DNA of 60,941 bases from a virus (lineage: Duplodnaviria > Caudoviricetes): positions 1-60,941 of IMG/VR virus record IMGVR_UViG_3300017759_000004. One strand, written 5' to 3'. Position numbers and translations under genes: made by a program. A model generated the notes under the pieces. It worked only from the letters and a program-made list of their open reading frames with translations, ran no database searches and was not told the origin of the DNA. The first letter of the stretch is position 1; each line of letters begins with the position of its first letter. Positions 2,208 to 42,976 of this stretch are shown here, piece after piece.

Positions 2208-3017
2208 ATGTCACAACTTAATGTAGGTACATTAAATGTAGGTACTACACAGTTCACTGGCGACTCAACAACATTAAACTCAGCACCTGCAAGTAGTATC
2301 ACAGGAATGTTAACTGGTACACCCAGTACTAACCATTCAATAATGTGGAACGGTTCAGCATGGGTTCCTCAGTTGATGGAAGGAAGATTGTTGGGGATGA
2401 ATGTATATACATCGCAGAACGGAACGTGGAACTCTAAGAGTACATCAGGTGGTAGTGGTACATGGACTAAACCAAGTGGGTGTAGTAATGTATTGGTATA
2501 TGTCACAGGTGGTGGTGGAGGTTCAAGAATCAATGATAACACCTATCGTGGTGCAGGTGGAGGTGGTGGAGCAACCGCTATTAAATGGATTGACGTGTCA
2601 GGAGTTAGTACAGTAAGTTATACTTATGGTGGTGGCGGTGGTTATGTTCGTAACGGTGGTAGAGGTGGTACAGGTGGTACTTCATCATTTGGTTCATATT
2701 GCAGTGCAACTGGTGGACAGGGTGGTCAATCAGATAACCCTCATCAGGGTGGGCCAGGGGGAAGTGCCAGTGGTGGAGACATTAATTTGCCAGGGGGAGG
2801 TGGAGAAATGTCACATGGTTCAAACAATGAAGGTGTGGCAGGTTCATCATTCTGGCATAAAGCAGGGTCATCACACCATTATTACAACAACCAAGAAGAA
2901 ATCACTCATGGACAATGGGGTTCTGGTGGTGGTCATGGTTATTATTCACAACACGATTACGCATATAACAACTCAAACGGTGGTGCGGGAGTCGTAATCG
3001 TTTACAACTACAGTTAA
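2208..3017 (+). CDS. Glycine-rich fibre/virion protein
   Basis: GTWTKPSG..VLVYVTGGGGGS...GGTSSFG...GGAGVVIVY is the Gly-rich domain common at phage fibre C-termini; late promoter upstream. Confidence 0.75.
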   Translation: MSQLNVGTLNVGTTQFTGDSTTLNSAPASSITGMLTGTPSTNHSIMWNGSAWVPQLMEGRLLGMNVYTSQNGTWNSKSTSGGSGTWTKPSGCSNVLVYVTGGGGGSRINDNTYRGAGGGGGATAIKWIDVSGVSTVSYTYGGGGGYVRNGGRGGTGGTSSFGSYCSATGGQGGQSDNPHQGGPGGSASGGDINLPGGGGEMSHGSNNEGVAGSSFWHKAGSSHHYYNNQEEITHGQWGSGGGHGYYSQHDYAYNNSNGGAGVVIVYNYS

Positions 3018-3021
3018 GAAC

Positions 3022-3381
3022 ATGAAAGCATTAGTACACGTTGAAGCAGGTCTCGTTTGTCAGTTAGTGGCAGATGGAGAAACCTTTGAAACTCATTCCG
3101 ATTACGCATGGAAAGAGTTTGATGAAACTGGATTATCTTATGTTGCAGGTACAGATAACGCACCAGAGTTTGAGTATGATAAAACAAATGATACTATCTC
3201 AAGGAAAACAATTGCACCCGAACCATATAATATGAAGAGAAAGTATGAGTACAATGAAGTGACAGAACAACTCGATCAACTCTGGCATGACATTGATGAT
3301 GGTAAACTAGGTTCAGACGCAAAGACAGGTACATGGTATCTTGGAGTCAAGAGTACGAAGGCAGCATTTCCAAAAACTTGA
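3022..3381 (+). CDS. Fibre-associated protein (tail-fibre-assembly-like partner)
   Basis: 119 aa directly after the fibre gene; C-terminal R..EY..V.EQLDQLWHDID....W...VK..K..FPK pattern typical of cyanophage fibre partners. Confidence 0.6.
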   Translation: MKALVHVEAGLVCQLVADGETFETHSDYAWKEFDETGLSYVAGTDNAPEFEYDKTNDTISRKTIAPEPYNMKRKYEYNEVTEQLDQLWHDIDDGKLGSDAKTGTWYLGVKSTKAAFPKT

Positions 3382-3405
3382 CACGCATTAAAAATATGCT
3401 ATAAT
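3378..3405 (+). promoter_or_regulatory. sigma70-type promoter
   Basis: TTGACA (3378-3383), 16-bp spacer, TGcTATAAT (3397-3405), followed by AAGAGGG as in the promoter at 16732. Confidence 0.8.
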
Positions 3406-3429
3406 AAGAGGGTACTTTGGCACAAACCA

Positions 3430-3654
3430 ATGCCCTCTTTTATATTGACCGCCATAGATGATGACGGAACGAATACAACTAAAGAATTCACATCTGAAGG
3501 TCTTAAAGAAGTTGTAGAAAAAACATCTGATTTCCTTAAAGGTGTTGGATATGTTTATGATGACTTAACATATACAGTTACAAATGAACAAGAAGGTCAT
3601 ATATCTGAACTTGTTTCATATGCTAGAAATGTAGCAAGTCAAACAGAAGTATAA
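3430..3654 (+). CDS. Hypothetical phage protein
   Basis: 74 aa after a strong promoter; the T.EF...L.EVV....DFLKGVGY pattern is familiar from T4-like phage small proteins. Confidence 0.7.
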   Translation: MPSFILTAIDDDGTNTTKEFTSEGLKEVVEKTSDFLKGVGYVYDDLTYTVTNEQEGHISELVSYARNVASQTEV

Positions 3655-3694: not shown

Positions 3695-3874
3695 ATGGGT
3701 AAAACATTTAGAAGGGGTGGGAGCGAAAAAGGCAACTACTCTTACGGAAAATCAATACGAGACAAGAGATCTCGTAACTCTAAATCATCTTTCTCGGAAG
3801 ACTCTTATGACTACCAAAAAACTAACAGAAAGCAAAAGCAAGAAAGAAGATTCAACACCTATGTTGATGATTAA
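3695..3874 (+). CDS. Small basic hypothetical protein (not in ORF track)
   Basis: Own translation MGKTFRRGGSEKGNYSYGKSIRDKRSRNSK...RRFNTYVDD* (59 aa, ATG start); more plausible than the overlapping GTG-start ORF 3717-3950. Confidence 0.6.
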   Translation: MGKTFRRGGSEKGNYSYGKSIRDKRSRNSKSSFSEDSYDYQKTNRKQKQERRFNTYVDD

Positions 3875-3951
3875 AGATGCTGAAGAGGATTTAGATATGT
3901 TTGATGATTGTTCTTACGAATATGATCTAGATTACACTACTCAATACTAAA

Positions 3952-6334: not shown

Positions 6335-6389
6335 TCCAGTTACCAAACTGTCACAACCCCTTGCAAAAGGGGTTTTTTTATTGTATAAT
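6332..6389 (+). promoter_or_regulatory. Palindrome-type early promoter, copy 2
   Basis: TAGTCCAGTTACCAAACTGTCACA; TTGCAA (6361), 17 bp, TATAAT (6384). Confidence 0.75.
6355..6379 (+). terminator. Intrinsic terminator embedded in promoter copy 2
   Basis: AACCCCTT-GCAA-AAGGGGTT stem with GNRA loop, then T run. Confidence 0.85.
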
Positions 6390-6422
6390 AATAATATTGA
6401 GACGAAAGTCATTTATTTTATT

Positions 6423-7676
6423 ATGCAGTTAAGACCCCATCAGCAAAGAGCATTTAACGCAATGCAAGAGACACCATATGGTCAGGTCATTATTCCTACA
6501 GGTGGTGGTAAAACTTATATTATGATCGCTGATGCTATGAAGCAATTTCAGTTACCAAGATCACAAACTATTGTAGTAGTCGCACCTCGTATATTACTAG
6601 CAAACCAGTTATGTGCAGAGTTCACAGAGTTTATCACAGAACAGAACTCAAAGTTTGGTCTTGATATTGCTCATGTTCACTCAGGAGAGACTCATCACTT
6701 CAGTACAACTAATCAGTTTGAGTTGAATGAATGGGTTAACAATAGCACAAAGAATATTATTATCTTTACAACATATCATTCACTACACAAAGTATGTAAT
6801 GCAGTTGATGTAGAAGTTGATACTATTTACTATGATGAAGCACATAATGGCACATCAAAGAATTTCTTTGAAGCGGTTGCTAGAATGTCATTTGGTGTAG
6901 CATATCGTAGGTTCGCATTTACAGCAACACCTAAGTTAGGTAGAGGTGCATCTAAAACTAGAGGTATGAACAATACTAAAGTATGGGGTAACACTCTATG
7001 TAATGTAAAAGCACAGGAACTTATTGATAGTGGTGCTATATTACCGCCTAAAGTTGTTCCTTTTACATGTAAGACAGAGAGAAACAAAGAGAATGCACAT
7101 GAGGTTGATGCACAGAACTTAATGGACATGTTAACATCATTCGGAGACAATGGACATAAAGTATTAGTTGCTAGTCCTAGCACTAGAGTTCTAAACAATA
7201 TGTTATCAAGAACATTCATACTTGATTGGTTATCTGATAATGGATATGATGTACTACATATTACATCAAAGTATGGTGCTATCATCAATGGAAAGAAGGT
7301 AGGTAGAGAAGAGTTCTTTGATACTCTTACTAAGTTTGGCAATGATAATAATCGTAAGGTTATTGTATTTCACTACAGTATATTATCTGAAGGTATCAAT
7401 GTCAATGGACTTACTCATACAATACTATTGAGAAATTTACCAACTATCGAAATGGCACAAACTATTGGTAGAGTTATCAGAGTTCACAAAGATGATAGAG
7501 ACGCTATCTCTAATGGTCAGTTGACTATTGGTAACTGGCAGTTCTATAAGAAATCAAGTGGACAGATCACAGTACCAACAGAGAACAAGTATGGAGATAA
7601 GATTGCTAGAAGACTAGAGTCTATTGTTGATTACATATTCAAGGAAGGATTACCCCCTATAGCATATGCATCATGA
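6423..7676 (+). CDS. Superfamily 2 (DExH, ResIII-like) helicase/ATPase
   Basis: Q motif LRPHQ, Walker A PTGGGKT, Ia VVAPR, Walker B DEAH, III FTAT, V ILSEGIN, VI QTIGRVIR. Start moved to ATG 6423 because 6381 lies within the promoter. Confidence 0.92.
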   Translation: MQLRPHQQRAFNAMQETPYGQVIIPTGGGKTYIMIADAMKQFQLPRSQTIVVVAPRILLANQLCAEFTEFITEQNSKFGLDIAHVHSGETHHFSTTNQFELNEWVNNSTKNIIIFTTYHSLHKVCNAVDVEVDTIYYDEAHNGTSKNFFEAVARMSFGVAYRRFAFTATPKLGRGASKTRGMNNTKVWGNTLCNVKAQELIDSGAILPPKVVPFTCKTERNKENAHEVDAQNLMDMLTSFGDNGHKVLVASPSTRVLNNMLSRTFILDWLSDNGYDVLHITSKYGAIINGKKVGREEFFDTLTKFGNDNNRKVIVFHYSILSEGINVNGLTHTILLRNLPTIEMAQTIGRVIRVHKDDRDAISNGQLTIGNWQFYKKSSGQITVPTENKYGDKIARRLESIVDYIFKEGLPPIAYAS

Positions 7677-8191
7677 CAGCAAAAAAAGGAACACATAGTT
7701 TTTCAAGTGGAAAACAAACTAAACATGAGAACAAACATATATCCCTAGTCCAAGAGATATATGATGAGTTTAAATGTCATGATGATAAGTGGGATAAAAG
7801 AAAAATGGTAACAGTTGCAGAGTTAATAGGAGAAGAAAATGTTAACTACGCTAGACACATGACAGGTAACTCTAATGAAATTTATAGTGATGGTGGAGTT
7901 ATATTTTATGATGGGAAAATCGTAGGATTATGTGAAGACAAATATCAACAAGATCATAGGAATGCATGTGAGAGAGCATGTAAGTATCAAGTGTATATGG
8001 ATTTAAAACCAAACCAGATATTTTTATCATGTGGTGGTGTGGGATTTGAGTTTGATACAAATAGACATGGTGGTGGTGCAACAGGCACATTATATGATAT
8101 AATGAAGTATCGAGGATATTCCATTGCTATGAATGAGACAGAACAAGAGTTCAAAACAAGATTAAGAAACTGGTTTAAAGGATTATTATGA
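7673..8191 (+). CDS. Putative PD-(D/E)xK restriction endonuclease, EcoRI/MunI-like
   Basis: SDGG...CEDKYQ...NACERACK parallels EcoRI PDGG...AEAKHQ...NAIERSHK; lies between helicase and MTase with ATGA overlaps on both sides. Confidence 0.65.
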   Translation: MTAKKGTHSFSSGKQTKHENKHISLVQEIYDEFKCHDDKWDKRKMVTVAELIGEENVNYARHMTGNSNEIYSDGGVIFYDGKIVGLCEDKYQQDHRNACERACKYQVYMDLKPNQIFLSCGGVGFEFDTNRHGGGATGTLYDIMKYRGYSIAMNETEQEFKTRLRNWFKGLL

Positions 8192-9051
8192 AACCCCTTT
8201 TCATGTGGGCAGGTGGTAAGAATAAGATGATGAAGCATTATCAACCTTACTTGCCTAGTTACGTCACTCACTATCATGAACCATTTTTCGGTGGTGGTGC
8301 TATGTTCATATATGTAATGAAAAGGTACAAACCGAAGTATGTATTGATTAATGATATTAACCCAGACATCATGAGAATATACAGAATGATAAGAGATAAT
8401 CATTCTCAGTTTATCAAACACATGGACGAATATCAAGAGAAGTATATACCACTCAGCAAGGAAGATAGAAAGAAATATTATTTCGAGGTCAGACATGGAC
8501 ACGCATTTGATTATAAAGGATGGAGTGAAGTTAAGGAAGCATCAACACTATACTTCTTAATGAAAACAGGTTTCAATGGCATATATCAGATCAATAAGAA
8601 TACTAATGGACGCTATGGTACACCTAGTGGACTTCTTAATCAAAAGGATACTGTTTACGATAAAGAGATTGTTAAGTGGTGGAGTGAAGCATTGCAAGGT
8701 GCAGAGATAACAAGTAAAGACTGGAAAGAAGTTAAAGCACCCCCATCTAAGGTGTATGCATTCCATTTTTTCGACCCCCCTTATAGGACATCTTATGCTG
8801 ATTATGGCAATGCTTTTAATGATAATGATTTAATAGAGTTGATAAAGTATGCTGATACATGTTCACAGGTATTTCTTGCTAACAGAGCAGACGATGATTT
8901 CTTTGAAAAGCAAAACCATAAACTAAACGTAGCACATTTTGACATAACATACACAGCAGGGAGAAGAAAACAAATAGATGATAAGTTTGAAGCAAAGAAG
9001 GCAAGAGAGATTCTACTATACAATGTCAAGGAAGGTGTGACAGTTGTATAA
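8188..9051 (+). CDS. D12-class (Dam-like, group alpha) N6-adenine DNA methyltransferase
   Basis: KPLFMWAGGK, EPFFGGGA (motif I), INDIN, FNGIY, FFDPPY (motif IV), terminal REILLYN. Target site not determinable. Confidence 0.93.
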   Translation: MKPLFMWAGGKNKMMKHYQPYLPSYVTHYHEPFFGGGAMFIYVMKRYKPKYVLINDINPDIMRIYRMIRDNHSQFIKHMDEYQEKYIPLSKEDRKKYYFEVRHGHAFDYKGWSEVKEASTLYFLMKTGFNGIYQINKNTNGRYGTPSGLLNQKDTVYDKEIVKWWSEALQGAEITSKDWKEVKAPPSKVYAFHFFDPPYRTSYADYGNAFNDNDLIELIKYADTCSQVFLANRADDDFFEKQNHKLNVAHFDITYTAGRRKQIDDKFEAKKAREILLYNVKEGVTVV

Positions 9052-9095
9052 GTGGCACAAGAGTGGTTGCATTGGGTTGCAATATGGTTTATATT
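9036..9095 (+). promoter_or_regulatory. Palindrome-type early promoter, copy 3
   Basis: TGTGACAGTTGTATAAGTGGCACA (contains the MTase stop); TTGCAT (9067), 17 bp, TATATT (9090). Confidence 0.75.
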
Positions 9096-9101
9096 AATAA
9101 T

Positions 9102-9194
9102 GTCGAAACAAACCAACGTAAAACTTTCAAGGTAACGGATACCCAGAGGAATACGTTTTTAAATCGAACTTAAGTAGTTGAGTTTTGTTTCGAC
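9102..9194 (+). ncRNA. Candidate structured RNA A
   Basis: Starts at the predicted TSS; GTCGAAACAAA (9102-9112) pairs perfectly with TTTGTTTCGAC (9184-9194); inner AACGTA/TACGTT and GGTA/TACC helices; no + ORF of gene size. Confidence 0.55.
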
Positions 9195-9202
9195 CCATCA
9201 CT

Positions 9203-9346
9203 GGGCATTGCCACACTCTACCGAACATTGCGTTGGAGCATCTAGTTCAACCGAGAACATGTAAGACCCATCCCTAGGCATTAAGCATACGAACTTTAAA
9301 ACACCAACTTTAATTAGATGTGGCAGTTGCAATCTTATGTAAGTCC
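9203..9346 (+). ncRNA. Candidate structured RNA B
   Basis: ATTGCCA (9207-9213)/TGGCAGT (9321-9327), CATCTAGTT (9239-9247)/AATTAGATG (9312-9320), GGGC/GTCC ends; ORF-free in an otherwise gene-dense region. Confidence 0.45.
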
Positions 9347-9368
9347 TAATCCTTTTATTATTTGAAAC

Positions 9369-9554
9369 ATGGTAAACTACAAACAACTTATTGAACTTGA
9401 TGGATACATCAATATCTGGGAAGTAATACCAGAGGATGAGCATTCACATATTTCTAACAAGATATGGGAAGCACTTGATCGGGCGGGTATAACCTTATCA
9501 CAGGATGCAGAGTTATCAGTCAGAGTATATGACAGTATAGAAAGTGGCACATAG
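9369..9554 (+). CDS. Small acidic early protein
   Basis: 61 aa; last codons are encoded by palindrome copy 4. Confidence 0.65.
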   Translation: MVNYKQLIELDGYINIWEVIPEDEHSHISNKIWEALDRAGITLSQDAELSVRVYDSIESGT

Positions 9555-9586
9555 TTGCCCCATCTACCTATCATATTCATTATAAT
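9528..9586 (+). promoter_or_regulatory. Palindrome-type early promoter, copy 4
   Basis: TATGACAGTATAGAAAGTGGCACA, 29 bp, TATAAT (9581). Confidence 0.75.
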
Positions 9587-9608
9587 AAGAATACAGCAAA
9601 ACATTATT

Positions 9609-10315: not shown

Positions 10316-10431
10316 TGGAAGATGAATACTTTGACCCTGATCTAGGTTTAACATACACAGACAACTTTGATGAGTATGATGTGCCAGTTGAAGAAGTGTC
10401 ACATGACCAGTTGCAAGATCAGGAATCATAA
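10315..10431 (+). CDS. Very acidic micro-protein (not in ORF track)
   Basis: MEDEYFDPDLGLTYTDNFDEYDVPVEEVSHDQLQDQES*; GAGGT SD; reads through palindrome copy 5. Confidence 0.5.
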   Translation: MEDEYFDPDLGLTYTDNFDEYDVPVEEVSHDQLQDQES

Positions 10432-12792: not shown

Positions 12793-12851
12793 TGTGCCAG
12801 TTATTAAAGTGTCACATAGTTACCCCATCTGGGGATACAACCCACTATAAT
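12793..12851 (+). promoter_or_regulatory. Palindrome-type early promoter, copy 8
   Basis: TGTGCCAGTTATTAAAGTGTCACA, CCCCATCTGGGG hairpin, TATAAT (12846). Confidence 0.85.
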
Positions 12852-13403: not shown

Positions 13404-13568
13404 ATGAGTCATTCAGCAAACACAGAAATCCTAGAAAACTTATACGAGGAGATTCTAGACGATCTTACAGCAAAAAACATCCAACTAGGTATTATGTTAC
13501 CTATGGAACACCTCGAAGCAATAGCATCAAAGCATGCTAACCAAAAATTTGAGATGATGTGCCAATAA
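13404..13568 (+). CDS. Small early protein (not in ORF track)
   Basis: MSHSANTEILENLYEEILDDL...KFEMMCQ* (54 aa); single-gene module, stop inside palindrome copy 10. Confidence 0.7.
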   Translation: MSHSANTEILENLYEEILDDLTAKNIQLGIMLPMEHLEAIASKHANQKFEMMCQ

Positions 13569-13616
13569 ACAAAGTGGCACACAGTATCCCCATCTGGGGA
13601 TACAATCCACTATAAT
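13558..13616 (+). promoter_or_regulatory. Palindrome-type early promoter, copy 10
   Basis: TGTGCCAATAAACAAAGTGGCACA, perfect GTATCCCC-ATCT-GGGGATAC hairpin, TATAAT (13611). Confidence 0.85.
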
Positions 13617-16243: not shown

Positions 16244-16462
16244 ATGACCCCTAAGTATAAAGAACTGTATGACAAGTATCCCCACTTAAGTAATAAACAG
16301 CAAATAGACTTATGCCAGTATTTGTTAGACACAGAGCAACACTTCTTCAGTACTGAAATAATGCAGAGGTGTATTTACTTCTTAGAGGAGGGATTATGCT
16401 ACTATGTGCCAGTTGAAGAAGTGGCACACACAGTGACCACAGAGGGGAAAGAAGTACTATAA
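16244..16462 (+). CDS. Small hypothetical protein
   Basis: 72 aa, Q.LLDT...C..F.EEGLCYYV motif; C-terminus reads through palindrome copy 12. Confidence 0.7.
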   Translation: MTPKYKELYDKYPHLSNKQQIDLCQYLLDTEQHFFSTEIMQRCIYFLEEGLCYYVPVEEVAHTVTTEGKEVL

Positions 16463-16731: not shown

Positions 16732-16760
16732 TTGACAAACATCTCACACGGTGCTATAAT
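16732..16760 (+). promoter_or_regulatory. Consensus sigma70 promoter
   Basis: TTGACA (16732), 17 bp, TATAAT (16755) with TG extension. Confidence 0.88.
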
Positions 16761-16787
16761 AAGAGGGAACAACAACCCTCTTTTTTT
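16761..16787 (+). terminator. Intrinsic terminator closing the early region
   Basis: AAGAGGG (16761-16767)/CCCTCTT (16776-16782), T run to 16787. Confidence 0.8.
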
Positions 16788-16789
16788 AT

Positions 16790-16925
16790 GGTCTAATCTC
16801 AGTCTCGCCAGTCTCAAGCACAGTCGCCCAGATCGCAGTCGTGGCGCGGGTTCTCGCGGGTCGTCGCGCCCCTAAATATAAAACGCTTAAGTCCCTAACC
16901 TACAAAGGTACCCGAAAGCGACCTA
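16790..16925. other. GC-rich non-coding island (candidate origin or structured RNA)
   Basis: CAGTC repeats at 16800, 16809, 16821, 16836; GGCGCG (16843)/CGCGCC (16865) inverted repeat; visibly far more GC-rich than the rest of the window. Confidence 0.5.
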
Positions 16926-41200: not shown

Positions 41201-42976
41201 GGTGCATCATCTATCACAGGTACTGTGTACGGATTCTTTGAAGATGCTAACTTCAAGTATCTTGATGTTAAGATTACCGCAGGTCCATGGGCAATATCAG
41301 ATAATGTTGTTGGTGCAACTAACTCTACTACTGCTCAGATTAGTGCTATTGAAACTCGTGTTCACATCATTGATCTTAAGGGTGACTTTGTTGCTGACAT
41401 CCCATTCAAAGGTTATACATCTGGTGCTATCGCACAACCTACATCATTCTTAAAAGTACAGGCATCTGTAACTGATAACACAGGTGGTAAGTTGACTGTT
41501 GATACTGAAACATTATTAGGTTCATTTGAAACTACTGCTGTTGTATATCCAGAGTCTTCTAGACAATACATTGTAGTAAGTAAGTATGCAGGTCTTGATA
41601 TCGGTGTTGGTGATAGAATTGCATCAAGAGGATATAAGAGATTTGGTATTAACATTATTAGTAATCTTAACAACTTCTCAGTTGGTAACAGACTTTATAA
41701 GGTTGTATCTGGTGTTCAAGATTCTGCCACATATGGTATTATCACTGACGTAGATATTGCTAACAACTACGTCTACATGATTGAGTATCAAGGAACATTT
41801 ACTAATGGTGATCAAATAGGTGATTATGGTTTAGCAGCATCATTCCCAGTTGGATATGCTTCTATCTCAACTATAGTTACAACTGCAGGTGCAGGTGCTG
41901 CTCTTGTACAAGACGTTCGTGTTGATGGTATTAACAAGCGTCTATACCTAAGTGATGTTACAGGATCATTTGGTGTTAGAGATGCTATTAAGGGACCAGA
42001 TTCATACGGTGCTGTTATCTTCTCACAAGTTGATCTTAAGGCAAGAGTCAAGAGATCATTTAAAGGATTTGATGGAACTACAACAACGTTCCCACTTACT
42101 ATTACAAATGGTACTACTTACCTCCCAGATCCCGCAGGACACCTCCTAATATTCGTTAATGGTATATTGCAACCTCCAGGTGCTACTAACGCATACACAG
42201 CGTTCTCCAACCAGATTCAGTTTACTGAACCACCAGATCTAGGAGCATCTTTCACTGGATTCTACATTGGTAAACTAAGACAGTTAGATGATATTTCATT
42301 CGAGTTTGACTCATTGAGACAATCATTCAACTTGAAACGTAATGATGTATTCTACTCATTGACACTAACTGATGGTGTACAATCTAGTGTGATAAGACCT
42401 GAGAACAACATTATTTGTTCACTCAATGGTGTTATCCAAGAACCTGGAGTTGGATTTGAAATTGTTGGTTCTAGAATTATCTTCTCTGAAGTTCCTAGAT
42501 TTGGATCAACATTTGTTGCCTTCTCATACGTTGGTTCTGAGGCAGACGTTGACGCTGCTGAAGTTGTACCACCGATTGAACCTGGTGACTTTATTGACAT
42601 TCAAGGTGAGACTGCAGATAGAGAAGTTGCTGTTATTGAATCATCAAACTCTCTAATCACATTTGATTATCTTGGATCTGTATTCGGTCAAAACGCAACT
42701 GCAACTGCGGTCTTGACATCTGGATTCATTGACACAGTTCAAGTTACTAATGGAGGTTCTGGTTACACAACCAGACCTACTGTTAGAATAGATTCCATCT
42801 CTGGTTTTGATGGAAATATCCGTGCACTAGTTGGTGTTGCAGGTATTGAACTGAGTGCAACTGGTTCTGGTTACTCAAATCCAGACATCGCTGTTGAGAC
42901 TTCGGTCCCTGATGACTGGGTTGCTCCAGACATTTCAACTTACGGTGAAGAGTTAGTTGACCCCGAAACCCCATAA
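23213..42976 (+). CDS. gp7: Giant (6587 aa) gp7-like baseplate wedge initiator with many inserted domains
   Basis: Position between gp6 and gp8; core motifs FLEYYY (N-term), KDFYSSKGT..S..YLFKLLYGE (~25280), IQDSYYYQDFSY...HPA.FKVFG (~33550-33670); inserted Gly-rich repeats, YHYH-type domain, two LamG-like domains, HTFVS/YPR repeats, helical repeats. Confidence 0.85.
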   Translation: MNINKVSQSIVSQSPDFIGSEYPLFNKFLEYYYKSQEKTGLGQNILNNFLQYLDIDKLDIGILDGQTTVVEAINATDDKIVVESVDPFLEKNGSILIGDEVIFYEDVENAPNISLAPGISYDQVKLKWTTLATIITQFNGNTTSFPLTSQDSPIGPPSAQHLIVSLYGQILIPNTDYTVSGSNIVFTTAPRTKLPADDAGETYIYYLSGFVESTIYGLDNLSGAFGDGKKQFTMTRNGVSYEPQNEEYLNVIYDNRLLVPKVDYFIDKNQFIFKTAPLNGRFLSIHSIEAPIPSFGSGAVGFARISDTGTLTSVSSSAIGSGYRFEYPPQVSINSAAGSGASATALVNGLKSITLLDGGKGYSTTNPPVVQVQTPTKAGSSQATITATVADGAVTGLNITNSGSGYTFTPRITFIQPGGAKLGTPVLSNEQIASIPVTANGFGYTTAPTVYVDEPTGSNPIKAALRANLTSEGKVGSISVLNAGQGYTTSPRVAIVDPVGAQILETVVDGDGRVIRVDLLNGGSGFDDVPSVYIVDNRTNGGTGATAVASIFNGQITDINITAFGSGYSAATPPEIVIQSPPSAKSSAEIGLNEVTGFAVTENGSGYKKAAFTGCARAASGITSYTEDGNAVFTSNTTAAPAIVGASVKCLDALFVKRLLDKYTEQFLPDVPELDYSKIDVRTSIKTVKDFYSSKGTSFSIAYLFKLLYGESVSVTYPKDQIIKPSAATWSIDTILRATKVSGDATNIRDGLLTQDADIADPNVLAASALVENYISIKTSDVEIFELVLSEETITGTFTVPYKTKLAEPLNTTDSIITVDSTVGWPERNGEFVIGSGTRTEVVQYKEKSLNQFIECTRSANGVVEDWDSATQVSSNFTVYVNKGTLQEVVMNIVGIVDAQQTTLVDTGSYYLPGDKLTVSKLGGTSLDPHLTTWLYNVKKLIQVTGITFGGVNNQFATVTCANNHGLLVGDQVTVYGANPIIYNGSFLVTSRDTSTVFQYQLPQPATVVPQGNILVSVDLNKGKSDSTAVFNAIGPYTTNVQNSFFNTTYAYLASTGIPNYKIGPFPGSALLPGNQRKLNRFPIVSTTISTKNTISPGPIGTWVNGVSIWSYKSTRKKTFGAVTSVGITNAGSGYDAASPPVLTISGGGGTGATAAVVVNGSVSEITVTTGGTGFTSSPLVSIVGGGGSGAAATAIITKGVVSRILINSGGTGYTSQPQITIVGGGGSGAAATASVRGPIQSVAISAGGTSYTSTPTVTLSSGSGAVAQAIVNNGRIISIAIISAGSGYTTAPEITIQGAGFGAVARATIDTDGENAGRVTGITIVNRGISYVQGTTVISLNSVGAGASFNANVFEWTYNLQKSTTFDSAKGSVFEGYNNQYGGEYAHLSNPQTLRYILGDNLFENTAGLIKEKEDGLEHSPIIGWAFDGNPIYGPYGYSDPTDQSSSIAKLNTSYRLKTNLVYNVDSNPTPVRTAGPLLTAEVAGNFVEDYEYVFGLGALDQYNGRFCKTPDYPTGRYCYFVTIDSTEDGGALFPYVLGPDFNSVVDTWNLSATAIQQNIPTGVVRYRDPYENVDIDVERAPNASTNALTLENGDILLFEIEDEDRSGVIEADETADPDQVFEESPLQLFDYFPTVKLDSKVDIEVETTTKFEDASVTGFTVENPGISYQVNDRLIFDNTDTDGSGVSARISRIVGETVEAYTFENISGNNFGVLTTVNPHNLQAGDSVFVDYTPVMANTNKTYSVRQFKGIEEIVINTTGSGYNSDIPPTIIIDGNGTGGQLEAVVTSVGSIETVNIVNSGFGYTSNPRVILSHPQVFKKADYYIAKFSNAQYVKVNDVYVNSDKEVYLCGKTKDSSGNAVAFLAKLSASGVKEWEKTLELATGQEESEFIRLFVDGHDIWVVGENRPNSSILSQYNPDIVLAKYVEASNGLTATLSFQKGYAGISGSTRADHITCIKKYSSTRFIIGGFTNTNSGAPYDAFIASIDTSGNFAIKRKLASSNKSEKITDIIVNGTDVYASLEIAATSSAADIDVAVAKISFGTTVITVDWVNQYANSLYSILNSSLDIDEFNEIYITGGLRLKADDATRDSWWVGKIDTTGALIWNYRYLAPGRDLTMAATSAIDIFGDLNVAFTRIDNTSTLTTIDTVKIGYDGKIKNHTTNQSTANKIEGLTVHSIDVDNSGDIHAVGQTQWNRNEFLFPFTAGSTADSTTAYTLTSTSTSNSITYADNVAKINGYQTGQTSWTQANLQITSAQLGTKLASDFTIEMMVYKDSTVTSVSPTQQTLIGIGDAEVATGGLWLYYDISGGKLELVITNSSTKLNSASGAAQSALSNMYADNTWQFIGLKKEGNVYTVYVNGIQVIQSTIAGTSLGSKDLYIGQYPGRSGTIGNFRANEQGQFFVDNLRLRNRAVTPTVPSDVSALPTAGAFGFAYSWTNTAWFTTNTNRYDLIDFEGFALKSDKNADAARIGTISTGTNTQIGFTRTAVTPVTGSTLTIQNTGYALSEAGFQSLDFDDATITMTEGTQTLTYTQDIWSSRTATVPSPGSQKLSVSAVVKDRYFFKVTPTIKIDNVQKLTINQAFNFSIGSKLRLNNSSGVFVNSGYVVRRDVDNNQIYLAVNNNTWTDDLNTGQLVTEQFSEQSTYGIVGPIPNDINIIEGYTFATITNTTPGTFDIDLNDFNLDGTTSTGSGNLDSFAKFKPFATADYSVRIDEVSGSSAYIVGSVVQLTSGDISFNTAYSTTQITNLTGVLKITLVANLDKILQVTAVANSDEVYVITNTSHYLSTGDMIYVDGNPSQTIGSTVYDEYDGAFAVNRVISPLEFVYKLPTVAQTSPATSASSVNIFVKSPVLKMYYGHQYIFDLSHSSLVGGNLSFAKDSLYKLEYSFNSIERVGTPGVTGAGQPNPSVTLKVDETIVTNISYYFDPSRTGSDSPVVAGSYLDVVDSPYKGVFEISSVAGATITRGADIIKYPLLNEPEGAADINQATYATSSLRAVGSINAVRIVNPGGFYTRLPIVTSIQSTRQIERVQINNPGTEYAVGTYSSVPIGGDGEGGFVEIIVADGTDANGVTIPGQINSVVVTSPGKNYTTATIDIEAISGILGSGLTGSGAEIVVVIPPFGSGASIFTKGDSVGKIKKLKNNNFGYDYPHDYTLRPEITFPINAQLTSTSILDSITVTDPGTGYSQAPAVVITGGGGSGAIAEASIKNGRLDTIIVKDPGAGYSSTPAVNLRSSFNYVVNLDLGLLQFAFPHGIANGSAVTLNVVDTGEGADFPLSAGATGRLNSSTTYYAISGTANSLETDQLKLAITAANAALGDALSYVNAGTGRQQVLTESFGGAATANVITSTFLEGELVYQGDSLATSTAQGYVSTNSGWQIGPRVLKIVDYTGTFSQGSRITGVISKSSGIMSDIKVATGVLEIGSITKTTGQFIDDVGKPSEIIQKIQDSYYYQDFSYAVKSAVSIGDWKEILIKNVHPASFKVFGELDLNDYGVIPNKETAFQLTKSVELARDAIVPNIQNFALVEPVYSEFNNTEVLFRQKRLTSSENILTSVVQRLDDISTQFDGQKISFPLTVDGNNVVANANQLMIVLNGVVQTPGTAFELQGDAIVFSEPPQPPASIKYVNVTINQIATKTVTFNNISGIFPTIGMALVGTSSGARLTVTKITGNDIDGFITQGTFTLGELATVGATGFAANIGTVTDVSNIGLFVFGENVSNLTSNTAKVEQINLQSGAETPLAQLRYTIGASTTSIEMVAYRTDNTAADAPVTAGTFVTGKNYQVESEIFLVNTIVQNNNSTTLTVTRAQNGTAAVSHQEYNPIYGTDITVTNTLTLSKTAGTYQSTPGLFDIVLNDYIIGAQSGVVAQITATSTYQDPTTNEFIGQVNISEGSSFFGLLFNRITSQTYPNIVLDNISQSQIGIVNFTDNLTAFDSSFPANEQVNNYVIPYDNLTGTFQENEYIRNYKIDYGNNNGDFLATEGARIRKLTITDRIGDGIFQTGQVIRSRDSKAEVVGYNQARNTIYLGKIGRSQRGGLDYNPPTWYGEAQIDTSTKKFGTGSLLLGRANHTHTFVSGVTNGIQASNGATSTHTAQTGTSYDPEAGTLVINIGTHSLTTSNKVTIADSAITFTCTADSNTTNHPYPRSTDPASGQALTISAVTSDTITVSVGVAQVTLDYLNVDSSSDFAWGTAAFTIELYVKAAAASISGVTTLLDFRTTANDVAGRLYTNGGQVRYNVNNSDLVTSGATVLATDTWTHIVVQKTSTTVKIFLDGTERGTGTDSQNYAAKPLRIGADYAGANAFFGHIDELRLSSESRYSTIPFTPQNGMFQGDANTKLLWHFDGADKQVFLEDWSGAPDFTIDEYVNNDAIRATARLIGGVHTFVSATTNAISVTGSSSFTPTAVDYDATTGLMEINIGSHSYTTSDTITIAANSLTFTCTKDNNATNHSYPRVTDPSYGATLAITAVTGDTITVNVGLASRGFDQKTHRYINAADLLILNYDYIANEAVYIMKERYPFFTIVGGEVNCEDDVRDILKAMVEDLRNGSNSHTWDAAALYVNRTTNPITLLHVSDDLKESLYTYDIVEKLARFVINNHPWSTLGDHGLTQKYDTTITESNYLTQSVTQFTPSTATYNPATGDMVVTSNGHGLTSDTNLTASNATYNAATGVLNITSNSHNLATGDKIQLADNSLTFTCSMDSNATNHTYPRAKDPAAQGWQEVTRVDANNFTIDVGKSPIVNYQPTGATYDPSTGVAVLTLPDNNLGIGTYVKVTANSLTFARGTGGNGTLPATDKYVNITQNGVTSTATGATYSTSDGVLVITQNAHGFVVGDKIRIADNSLSFTCTKDGNHETKTYPRSTDPFSGRWLRITAKTDNTFTVNVGPSSAADQYVHTFVSAAANGIIKRDNTITVNIGTDSNTSTHTFSSALSNTVITGGNYTHAFVSATTNGITVSGDSVFLADGAVSFTCSKDGNSKITAYPRKTDPASKQVLKISSHTNDTFTINVGASSADDQYTHTFSSAVTNGITKSEYTLTDCQDVQSTIANLFDIITDTLTYASQSPAVDHLATVTKSTPAYEFVGGTINAFSEVPLTVDYHNGTNDTIYTNQIDVDARGRFRDAANLIRANRKVIVDKAAYDMLTRYPALALDMPRNANGTSTDGTLRCKTDLGLILDGLAQDIEDGGNDGILTAVGFYIGNNSELRYIRLQVHQSAYAHERLAFYAKQAVTGDLDYTNTDGIIVGDWGITNDSGGCANVKTAIDTLITLLNDIIAPTAADFNTAADRIYFNREGIRAEITGLMGVEFNYLLNQVQYQAFQFPGGALGESAFQQTLEDILIGAISDLQTGGNDSIILEIEKFLTSALEYNYSTSGVEQLLIATVYGVEQLETIGLKAIDNLLYTQGEDNSGTAGAYNFVHHNIAAVRDSLTLSDAISVKNRWKELIEIAVNILSPARKVGRSASKNLLYNKNYYLQEIQTQTLAQFGAGSWTYDTFVTDVLEDIIHDLQTTNIRTSTTAYQITIQSVSSTAFQLGEVVRSNIGGYATILEYEEETNFLIVGAFTGTAWVAGNTLTGKTSGATATISSGGVGTGYTWYTKIGNTRTLANARTIISTVSGQTAGTNLWTNPEAYSVNWTPTTNVTITDNVSTLAPDDTQTAEDVTPNNGQNGQHEINRDYSLTAFETFDSGTTTFDNNTESFDTGAVGAGETQTFTFSAFVKESGSQGIRFQMQLDPGGAGEQNIFFDLNLTNGTTGTLFTPQGGITGDAFGAIPLGNGWFRCYITATFSFGFTTLRNKFIIKSSTGGSVWTGDASTGILVWGAKLTKNALDPYQAQSGKLFYADTGFNTKNYILDLLQTYMLASLDGTLTSPAPNSGFYSFYDSTAAADYSKPSVAAVVRYLIKIIKDQLVDDSTYIQITTNRNIELPTKVYTTGRTIPVSIKGGANNADYVYGLLSNTYAEIENITLNQGYVVQVYSRFRIDGNITDGPYTMNETVAKQGASSITGTVYGFFEDANFKYLDVKITAGPWAISDNVVGATNSTTAQISAIETRVHIIDLKGDFVADIPFKGYTSGAIAQPTSFLKVQASVTDNTGGKLTVDTETLLGSFETTAVVYPESSRQYIVVSKYAGLDIGVGDRIASRGYKRFGINIISNLNNFSVGNRLYKVVSGVQDSATYGIITDVDIANNYVYMIEYQGTFTNGDQIGDYGLAASFPVGYASISTIVTTAGAGAALVQDVRVDGINKRLYLSDVTGSFGVRDAIKGPDSYGAVIFSQVDLKARVKRSFKGFDGTTTTFPLTITNGTTYLPDPAGHLLIFVNGILQPPGATNAYTAFSNQIQFTEPPDLGASFTGFYIGKLRQLDDISFEFDSLRQSFNLKRNDVFYSLTLTDGVQSSVIRPENNIICSLNGVIQEPGVGFEIVGSRIIFSEVPRFGSTFVAFSYVGSEADVDAAEVVPPIEPGDFIDIQGETADREVAVIESSNSLITFDYLGSVFGQNATATAVLTSGFIDTVQVTNGGSGYTTRPTVRIDSISGFDGNIRALVGVAGIELSATGSGYSNPDIAVETSVPDDWVAPDISTYGEELVDPETP

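Follow-up and report, generated by a model that had tools for sequence, protein, structure and literature searches.

We identified two families of structured RNA, here named E1 and E2, in an intergenic gap of a tailed virus genome (Duplodnaviria; Caudoviricetes; IMG/VR record IMGVR_UViG_3300017759_000004) that was analysed over its full length of 60,941 nucleotides (nt), hereafter the window. By DNA similarity, the window represents the early region of a T4-like cyanomyovirus (Kyanoviridae), and 81 Synechococcus and Prochlorococcus phage records match its positions 8900-9600. The gap (9052-9368; 317 bases) separates a DNA methyltransferase gene from the first open reading frame (ORF) of a transcription unit (Table 1). 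E1 and E2 recur in many cyanomyoviruses; they are conserved, covarying, strand-specific and ORF-free, and they lie at the 5′ end of early transcripts; we have little doubt that they are real structured RNA families. As far as sequence comparison can tell, we lean towards the view that the gap holds RNA genes, rather than a protein gene or junk, and that E1 and E2 act as autonomous early folded RNAs with a binding partner of some kind. The ocean's chief primary producers lose a large share of their cells to T4-like cyanophages, and two well-defined families are hereby added to a very short list of cyanophage RNAs. Space in the early region is usually treated as lists of small ORFs; part of it is taken up by RNA whose conservation exceeds that of a core replication gene.

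E1 is a three-way-junction RNA. A sequence-only reading of this stretch had described an 11-bp closing helix around nested stems, and the helix (9102-9112/9184-9194) is indeed an exact inverted repeat. The nested stems as drawn were not confirmed: homologues covary, but the minimum-free-energy fold differs in detail from the fold that covariation supports, which comprises CAAC/GUUG, a single purine:pyrimidine (R:Y) pair, a 4-bp P2 base and P3. The fold energy of E1 has z = -3.45, and 1 of 200 shuffles folds equally well. Copies of the family share P1 with an internal loop in which N-UAA faces a lone A, a single R:Y pair, the invariant strand ACUUUCAAGGU, P2 and P3 (UUUAA-N7-UUAAG), all of which are found at 9102-9194. 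The sequence of the P1 helix varies among copies (e.g., GUCGAAAC.., GGGGAAAC.., GGAUCGC and GUGUAAGG), each time with its complement. The 4-bp base of P2 covaries and its tip ranges from a 6-nt loop up to an insert of about 90 nt, while P3 joins P2 without a linker and runs directly into the R:Y pair.

The covariation of E1 was tested on a MAFFT alignment of 54 distinct copies, using a hand-written structure of 14 pairs and 500 column shuffles. We found that 93.1% of cells pair, compared with 76.0% in shuffles (0/500), and that the covariation score is 0.441 compared with 0.146 (0/500). Eight of the 14 pairs change on both sides, which as a measure is not outstanding (336/500 shuffles reach it), and the count of further pair types is not above chance (289/500 shuffles reach it). 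Pairing drops to 22-44% in controls in which the 3′ partners were shifted. Inner P1 is unpaired in approximately 8-12 of the 54 copies, a subtype with a second UAAG/CA module in its place. An alignment-free count from the invariant anchors showed that each of the four P2 pairs is standard in 43/43 distinct copies, with two to four pair types, and that the R:Y pair holds in all 43 (A-U in 8, G-C in 35). The invariance of P3 is partly a matter of ascertainment, since searches were anchored on P3. When the 5′ junction was used instead, 11 of 96 new matches carried an approximate P3, and the 85 that have no P3 within 170 nt are probably chance matches. Within P3, the junction-anchored copies vary only at loop positions 1 and 3 and at a sixth pair, giving a 5-bp stem with a 7-nt loop N-U-Y-G-A-A-C.

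The promoter and the genes around E1 lie on the plus strand. The E1 fold is strand-specific on account of a U-G pair that never varies in P3 and of the G-U pairs that occur in variants of P1. The region 9077-9197 shares 96.7% identity with unannotated intergenic DNA of P-RSM4 and S-TIM4, whereas the helicase gene 1.5 kb upstream of E1 shares 70.6% with that of P-RSM4. The E1 region is also 84% identical to metaG-MbCM1, where the flanks differ on both sides.

The second family, E2, is a hairpin RNA that follows E1. Positions 9204-9268 are 89% identical to unannotated DNA of P-HM2 (41397-41461), directly ahead of the P-HM2 copy of E1, and a 20-mer from the E2 loop was found at 16 IMG/VR loci, with E1 present at 14 of them. 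Common to the 12 distinct E2 contexts are helix a, as GAAC/GUUC or GCAC/GUGC, the NACC/AACN internal loop and the invariant 18-nt apical loop, with CUC/GAG, GUCA/UGAC and GUCA/UGGC as variants of helix b; the window's own row of the alignment has helix b, this internal loop, helix a and the apical loop. Pairing reaches 94.4% compared with 79.5% in shuffles (0/500), and 9 of the 15 pairs change on both sides (1/500 shuffles). The fold energy of E2 has z = -1.38. Collecting homologues and checking covariation had been proposed with the sequence-only reading, and both E1 (54 copies) and E2 (12 contexts) were found to covary when compared with shuffles. The same reading had drawn a second domain of stacked stems at 9203-9346. 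As one large domain this was rejected, as it folds no better than shuffles (z = -0.25; 76/200 fold as well) and only its first half, which corresponds to E2 (9202-9270), is backed by homologues and covariation. The whole 274 nt have z = -1.28 on the plus strand and -0.27 on the minus strand. Downstream of E2, a possible third unit, E3, perhaps decayed, is bordered by a similar shell, whose direct repeats are 89% (9192-9209/9265-9282) and 76% (9259-9275/9337-9353) identical.

An explanation without any RNA function, in which the gap is what is left of a degenerating gene, encodes a very small peptide or works at the DNA level, for example as an origin or a joint of recombination, is largely refuted for E1 and E2, and we would be surprised to see it revived. 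It could appeal to the 11-codon ORF that begins at ATG 9100, which is present as had been reported, to the shell repeats that lie at unit borders as recombination would leave them, and to the degenerate look of E3. Compensatory changes, however, maintain the helices, the G-U pairs give a fold that is specific to one strand, and conservation is far above that of the adjoining genes. The ATG is kept in only 10 of the 54 E1 copies, with ORF lengths of 11-25 codons, and 31 of the 54 have no ATG in the 30 nt preceding the junction. The earlier statement that no gene begins before 9369 agrees with the gap, which contains no ORF of at least 60 amino acids (aa) on the plus strand, where ORFs span only 20-36 codons; its minus-strand ORFs match no PHROG family.

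Table 1. Coordinates of the RNA elements in the gap and of the surrounding features in the window.
Feature	Positions	Strand	Details
E1, three-way-junction RNA	9102..9194	+	model R1 match 9094-9200, 81.7 bits, E 2e-18, sole match in window
E1 P1 outer	9102-9112/9184-9194		perfect 11-bp inverted repeat
E1 P1 inner	9114-9117/9177-9180		CAAC/GUUG
E1 internal loop	9118-9121/9176		G9118-UAA 9119-9121 opposite A9176
E1 R:Y pair	9122/9175		A9122:U9175
E1 invariant junction strand	9123-9133		ACUUUCAAGGU, 11 nt
E1 P2	9134-9137/9154-9157		variable tip
E1 P3	9158-9162/9170-9174		UUUAA/UUAAG, 7-nt loop 9163-9169
E2, hairpin RNA	9202..9270	+	closing stem UGGG 9202-9205/CCCA 9267-9270
E2 inner closing module	9206-9207/9262-9265		C9206:G9265 beside UAA 9262-9264 opposite A9207
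E2 helix b	9216-9218/9253-9255
E2 internal loop			UACC/AACC
E2 helix a	9223-9226/9245-9248
E2 invariant apical loop	9227-9244		18 nt
E3, possible third unit	9275..9348	+	E2-like shell UAGGCA ... GUAAGUCCUA; interior not conserved elsewhere
PeSL-like stem-loop	9036..9059	+	UGUGACA/UGGCACA, 6/7 pairs, 10-nt loop; spans Dam stop TAA 9049-9051
Early sigma-70-like promoter	9067..9095	+	TTGCAT 9067-9072, 17 nt, TATATT 9090-9095; predicted start ~G9102
DNA helicase	6381-7676		phrog_16; upstream of RNA block
172-aa ORF			upstream of RNA block
DNA methyltransferase (Dam methylase)	8188-9051		phrog_56; gene directly upstream of gap
First ORF of transcription unit, 61 aa	9369..9554	+	phrog_34387

IMG/VR was searched for E1 by exact pattern, and a 23-mer from its 5′ half and a 17-mer from its 3′ half were found at 13 and 82 loci, respectively. 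Among 72 distinct contexts of the 17-mer, 65 also carry the 5′ junction motif; the other seven look like chance matches in coding DNA. R1, a covariance model of our own, detected one strong copy each in P-SSM4, P-SSM3, P-HM2, P-RSM4 and MbCM1, always near the helicase/methylase block, and no match below E = 0.1 in P-RSM1, Syn19, P-SSM7, P-TIM40 and S-SSM5 (0/5). By blastn, E1 is matched in 15 records, which amount to about eight isolates, and the helicase gene in 323. The E1 carriers are the closest helicase relatives, and descent within one lineage therefore explains the distribution. Sampling relatives in IMG/VR via the helicase protein returned only seven close loci. E1 and E2 are unannotated in all GenBank records that we inspected. 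In metaG-MbCM1 (NC_019443, locus L003), the coding sequences at 2358-2621 (minus strand) and 2636-2860 (plus strand), the first of which overlaps E1, are both annotated as helicase and are not. A helicase split around E1 in this phage was considered and rejected as a mis-annotation, as the first of the two apparent fragments is the intact C terminus of the helicase and the other, the plus-strand coding sequence, shows no relation to it (E = 3.3).

The sequences around E1 show what it travels with. The first ORFs 3′ of E1 in 60 distinct cases fall into 25 unrelated clusters, and 38 of 60 distinct loci have a -10-like box located 17-30 nt before the UAA anchor. A terminator lies within approximately 115 nt of E1, with no real ORF in the unit, in 6 of 60 distinct loci including P-SSM4 and P-SSM3; the order in P-SSM4 (locus L018) is promoter, E1 (1511-1671), intrinsic terminator with a T-run (1733-1752) and a new promoter for the helicase. 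Given the 25 downstream clusters and these terminator-ended units, E1 goes with the early promoter rather than with any gene, and it can stand alone. A homologue of the 61-aa ORF that ends the gap adjoins E1 directly, without E2 or E3, in another locus (L008). In an IMG/VR relative whose helicase protein is 93% identical (L154/L041), another E1 subtype (GGGG leader stem, AGCG P2 base) is found, again without E2 and E3, from which we infer that the RNA block turns over faster than the adjoining genes. In the window itself, the -35/-10 pair of the promoter, TTGCAT and TATATT, is present as claimed in the sequence-only reading, although it falls below the threshold of a consensus scan, and is hence unlisted there, with 3 of 6 matches in the -35 box. 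Other early promoters in the window have an ATG within approximately 20-30 nt downstream, and 9090-9095 does differ from them in the way that had been described.

On the reading that we favour, host RNA polymerase would start at about G9102 and transcribe two, perhaps three, self-contained folded units before reaching the first ORF. Each unit would fold into a specific tertiary structure and bind a host or phage factor early in infection, whether by being released as a small RNA or by remaining the 5′-terminal domain of the early transcript, and the units would not be a switch for one particular gene. We argue for such autonomy because of the invariant unpaired nucleotides, the independence of the downstream gene, the existence of stand-alone units and the presence of one copy per genome. 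The invariant 11-nt junction of E1 and the invariant 18-nt loop of E2 each point to a specific partner. The proposal of tandem RNA cargo behind an early promoter is thus upheld for two conserved, covarying and ORF-free units and lacks support for E3, while the 25 downstream families argue against a gene-specific leader and the lack of a counterpart in host genomes argues against a copied host RNA.

Several observations weigh against autonomous RNA units. The E2 covariation is drawn from 12 rows of about five lineages, and its structure was read from the same rows. The P3 stem and the junction strands of E1 are invariant across copies, which makes their pairing or tertiary role putative. For E3, neither the phage collection nor a blastn-short comparison with the collected homologous loci yielded homologues beyond near-identical contigs, and there is no fold signal (z = +0.62). 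Contigs from four RNA libraries of three studies, which show neither ends nor strand and may include DNA carry-over, hint at transcription of E1 and E2, with transcript ends, abundance and processing not visible in them. One RNA run yielded exact contigs over 8976-9126, 9161-9284 and 9255-9385, and the 3′ halves of E1 from relatives occur in RNA-library contigs at a depth of 8.7-15.4; the many contig ends at 9197 and the uncovered parts reflect relatives with other downstream contexts and not processing. Finally, 32 of 60 distinct loci have an ORF whose start is 31-57 nt beyond the E1 core (10-30 nt beyond P1), a position that would suit a leader equally well.

A generic cis-acting 5′ leader domain is the main rival, and we rate it as a serious possibility but not the probable one. 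The units would then remain part of the early mRNA and give it protection or tuning irrespective of the gene, be it by burying the 5′ end in a helix against RNase E/J (in the extreme, by stalling nucleases like the exonuclease-resistant RNAs, xrRNAs, of viruses), by setting translation of the nearby start, or by read-through of early stem-loops. HK022 put RNA makes polymerase read through. Besides the spacing of the ORF starts, such a leader is consistent with the predicted transcription start at the first base of P1, with E1 accompanying a promoter and not a gene family, with the tandem arrangement of the units, and with a 5′ strand of P1 that looks like the leaders, rich in A and C, of the window's ordinary early genes. 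P-SSM4-type loci, however, end in a terminator and have no ORF to protect, most early promoters in the window manage without E1, and only a minority of cyanomyoviruses carry it (0/5 others tested). A plain stabiliser would also not need some 30 invariant nucleotides that are unpaired or in AU stems, which the autonomous RNA reading takes as the mark of a partner.

The comparison of E1 and E2 with known RNA families bears on the remaining explanations. Rfam 15, which covers manA, wcaG, glnA, PhotoRC, abiF, tRNA, tmRNA, small ribozymes and Y RNA, gave no match over the whole window at gathering threshold, only a noise match to SNORD19B at 8900-9600 with E up to 10 (E = 1; 21.5 bits compared with a gathering score of 50), and none in the homologous loci of P-SSM4, P-HM2, P-RSM4 and MbCM1 with E up to 1; the candidate noncoding RNAs for which this search had been suggested belong to no Rfam family at these settings. 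We found no description of the elements in the literature, as far as full text was available and including the core motifs as strings. A comparative catalogue from IMG/VR intergenic regions (Fremin et al., 2023; PMC10690425) may well include E1 or E2 under an anonymous number, possibly in its supplements; no comparable cyanophage motif is named in the accessible main text.

Metabolite-sensing riboswitch aptamers that regulate the gene behind them would have precedents. According to the accessible parts of two papers, which name CfrI, PhotoRC-II, wcaG, manA, glnA and abiF as cyanophage RNAs, T4-like cyanophages have orphan riboswitch candidates in manA and wcaG (Weinberg et al., 2010; PMC2864571), which occur in tandem with abiF in S-CREM1 (PMC9964418). 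Like E1 and E2, they are structured, covarying RNAs in positions resembling 5′ untranslated regions, and E1 has an aptamer-like fold with invariant junctions and such a position in most loci. We nevertheless consider this explanation very unlikely. Whereas manA and wcaG precede coherent gene sets, as described there, E1 precedes 25 unrelated families with no functional theme; no match to the manA, wcaG or glnA models was obtained even at E up to 10, no conserved alternative pairing or expression platform was seen by eye in the downstream tails, and units of the P-SSM4 type have only a terminator behind E1.

Some features of E1 recall tRNAs. The T4 tRNA region encodes small stable RNAs, and some phage small RNAs have their 5′ and 3′ ends paired in a long helix. 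The ends of E1 likewise pair in a long helix on which a hairpin like a T arm is stacked, and CCA follows the helix directly in the window (9195-9197) and in the GUCG, ACGA, GCGAG and GAGAA subtypes. In a tRNA-derived or tRNA-like RNA, P3 on P1 would mimic the T arm on the acceptor, with the junction GG in the role of the D loop; the 5-bp stem and 7-nt loop of P3, with N-U-Y-G-A-A-C variants that presumably resemble a T loop, and the zero-nucleotide joints between P2 and P3 and between P3 and the R:Y pair would fit. Unlike tRNAs, E1 has no anticodon arm of standard size, and CCA is absent from the GGGG and P-HM2 subtypes. ARAGORN at default settings reported no gene in the window or in the 54 copies, the Rfam tRNA and tmRNA models did not match, and a tRNA reading was rejected as the relaxed and mitochondrial ARAGORN hits fell on both strands with inconsistent anticodons and the drawing conflicts with the covariation fold. 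The related possibility of a decoy for a host RNA or antitoxin finds no host copy: an exact scan of 185,579 prokaryote species genomes for the 17-mer gave 51 loci, of which two have both anchors, both being contigs of metagenome-assembled genomes with phage-like flanks and neither a named picocyanobacterium. Arrays of the type III antitoxin (ToxI-like) kind are also not seen, as the region contains no tandem near-identical repeats and only the shell borders repeat (76-89%). Taken as a group, these tRNA-like and decoy explanations seem to us scarcely probable.

Self-cleaving ribozymes of new classes, with each unit excising itself and trimming the early transcript, would account for the compact junction, many invariant nucleotides and variable stems of E1 and for the tandem placement of distinct motifs in phage DNA. 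The discovery of small ribozyme classes followed a comparable path. We hold this to be improbable, as no Rfam ribozyme matches up to E = 10 and nothing points to a cleavage site, while contigs cannot yield evidence of cleavage.

We also observed that the RNA cores are not tied to the helices that enclose them. E1 in the window is closed by a leader stem of the form -10 box, G-N-N-GAAACAAAC ... GUUUUGUUUC-N-N-C, followed by a CCAYC or UCGUC tail. A leader stem of this type encloses the E2 core at two loci (L142 and L143) and an unrelated 36-nt hairpin at a third (L158), the flanks of which equal those of L143. In P-RSM1 (NC_021071, locus L255), the window's promoter and leader stem (GUCGAAACAAAC ... 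GUUUUGUUUCGAC, then CCACC) are found directly after the helicase (3790-3922) around another cargo of approximately 95 nt, which keeps UUUAAGUCGAAC and GGAUACC, lacks the E1 junction strand and is not detected by model R1. Conversely, the E1 core sits within the GGCA...UAAG-N-CC shell, which closes E2 and E3 in the window, at loci including L039, L062 and L075. With the E2 core and other cargos in the leader stem and the E1 core in the GGCA/UAAG shell, cores and shells assort independently. A small module of UAAG opposite CA is common to both shells and the E1 core.

A natural cargo swap is visible between L158 (6132-6192) and L143 (3261-3341), where flanks and leader stem are identical and the cargo is a CUGCAG...CUGCAG hairpin in the former and the E2 core in the latter; we take this difference as a hint of exchange. 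Another conserved G-rich element (a run of 6-8 G, a short hairpin and a UAAG-like end) occurs 3′ of E1 in loci of the P-HM2 type (L020, 1650-1700), and it stands 5′ of E1 in another subtype (L039, L048, L057 and L067). Arrays of E1 and E2 may hold more RNA families.

The stem-loop upstream of the promoter connects this arrangement to PeSL cassettes, the borders of stem-loop plus early promoter in T4-type phages (Arbiol et al., 2010; PMC2839356). As in those cassettes, to the extent that the available text describes them, a stem-loop at the upstream stop codon and a sigma-70-like early promoter (9036-9095) recur across a hyperplastic early region and the adjoining cargo is shuffled among related phages. 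The hairpin has a perfectly paired counterpart in P-RSM4, and its motif (TGTGCCAGT ... AGTGTCACA type) recurs four times between small early ORFs (10380-10403, 12793-12816, 13558-13581 and 16405-16428). PeSLs are described there as flanking ORFans, whereas the cargo here is a folded RNA, and a second, transcribed stem holds the exchangeable RNA cores. Neither cyanophage nor noncoding RNA turned up in a term search of the accessible text of Comeau et al. (2014; PMC4122927). A sigma-54-type reading of TGGCAC...TTGC was rejected by eye, as the spacing is wrong and these letters form one arm of the hairpin that recurs. The independent assortment extends the idea of modular shuffling from genes to RNA domains, and it offers natural swap experiments.

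More tentatively, cyanomyoviruses could run a combinatorial system of RNA cassettes, in which at least two invariant cores (E1 and E2, with further cargos in L158 and P-RSM1) are placed in at least two exchangeable shells (leader stem and GGCA/UAAG) at the 5′ ends of early transcripts, with the cores as novel classes of functional RNA that target the host during the first minutes of infection. We regard this as an attractive but doubtful extension of the autonomous RNA reading. Were it true, the cores could stall RNase J/E through their fold, could be small ribozymes of a new kind, or could act as decoys that tightly bind RNA-binding or defence proteins of the host.

The window is AT-rich, with a G+C content of approximately 36%. 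The 3′ part of the E2 loop with helix a (9239-9250) is complementary at 11 of 12 positions to codons 8-11 of the next ORF (9391-9402), which by a rough estimate is at about chance level in 421 nt. Elsewhere in the window, strong promoter-like sites (TTGACA...TATAAT) at 3378-3455 and 16732-16790 lead straight into a hairpin (AGAGGG...CCCUCU) and a stretch of U. At 16761, a hairpin with T7 comes directly after the -10 region, and the predicted transcript is approximately 30-45 nt long and ORF-free.

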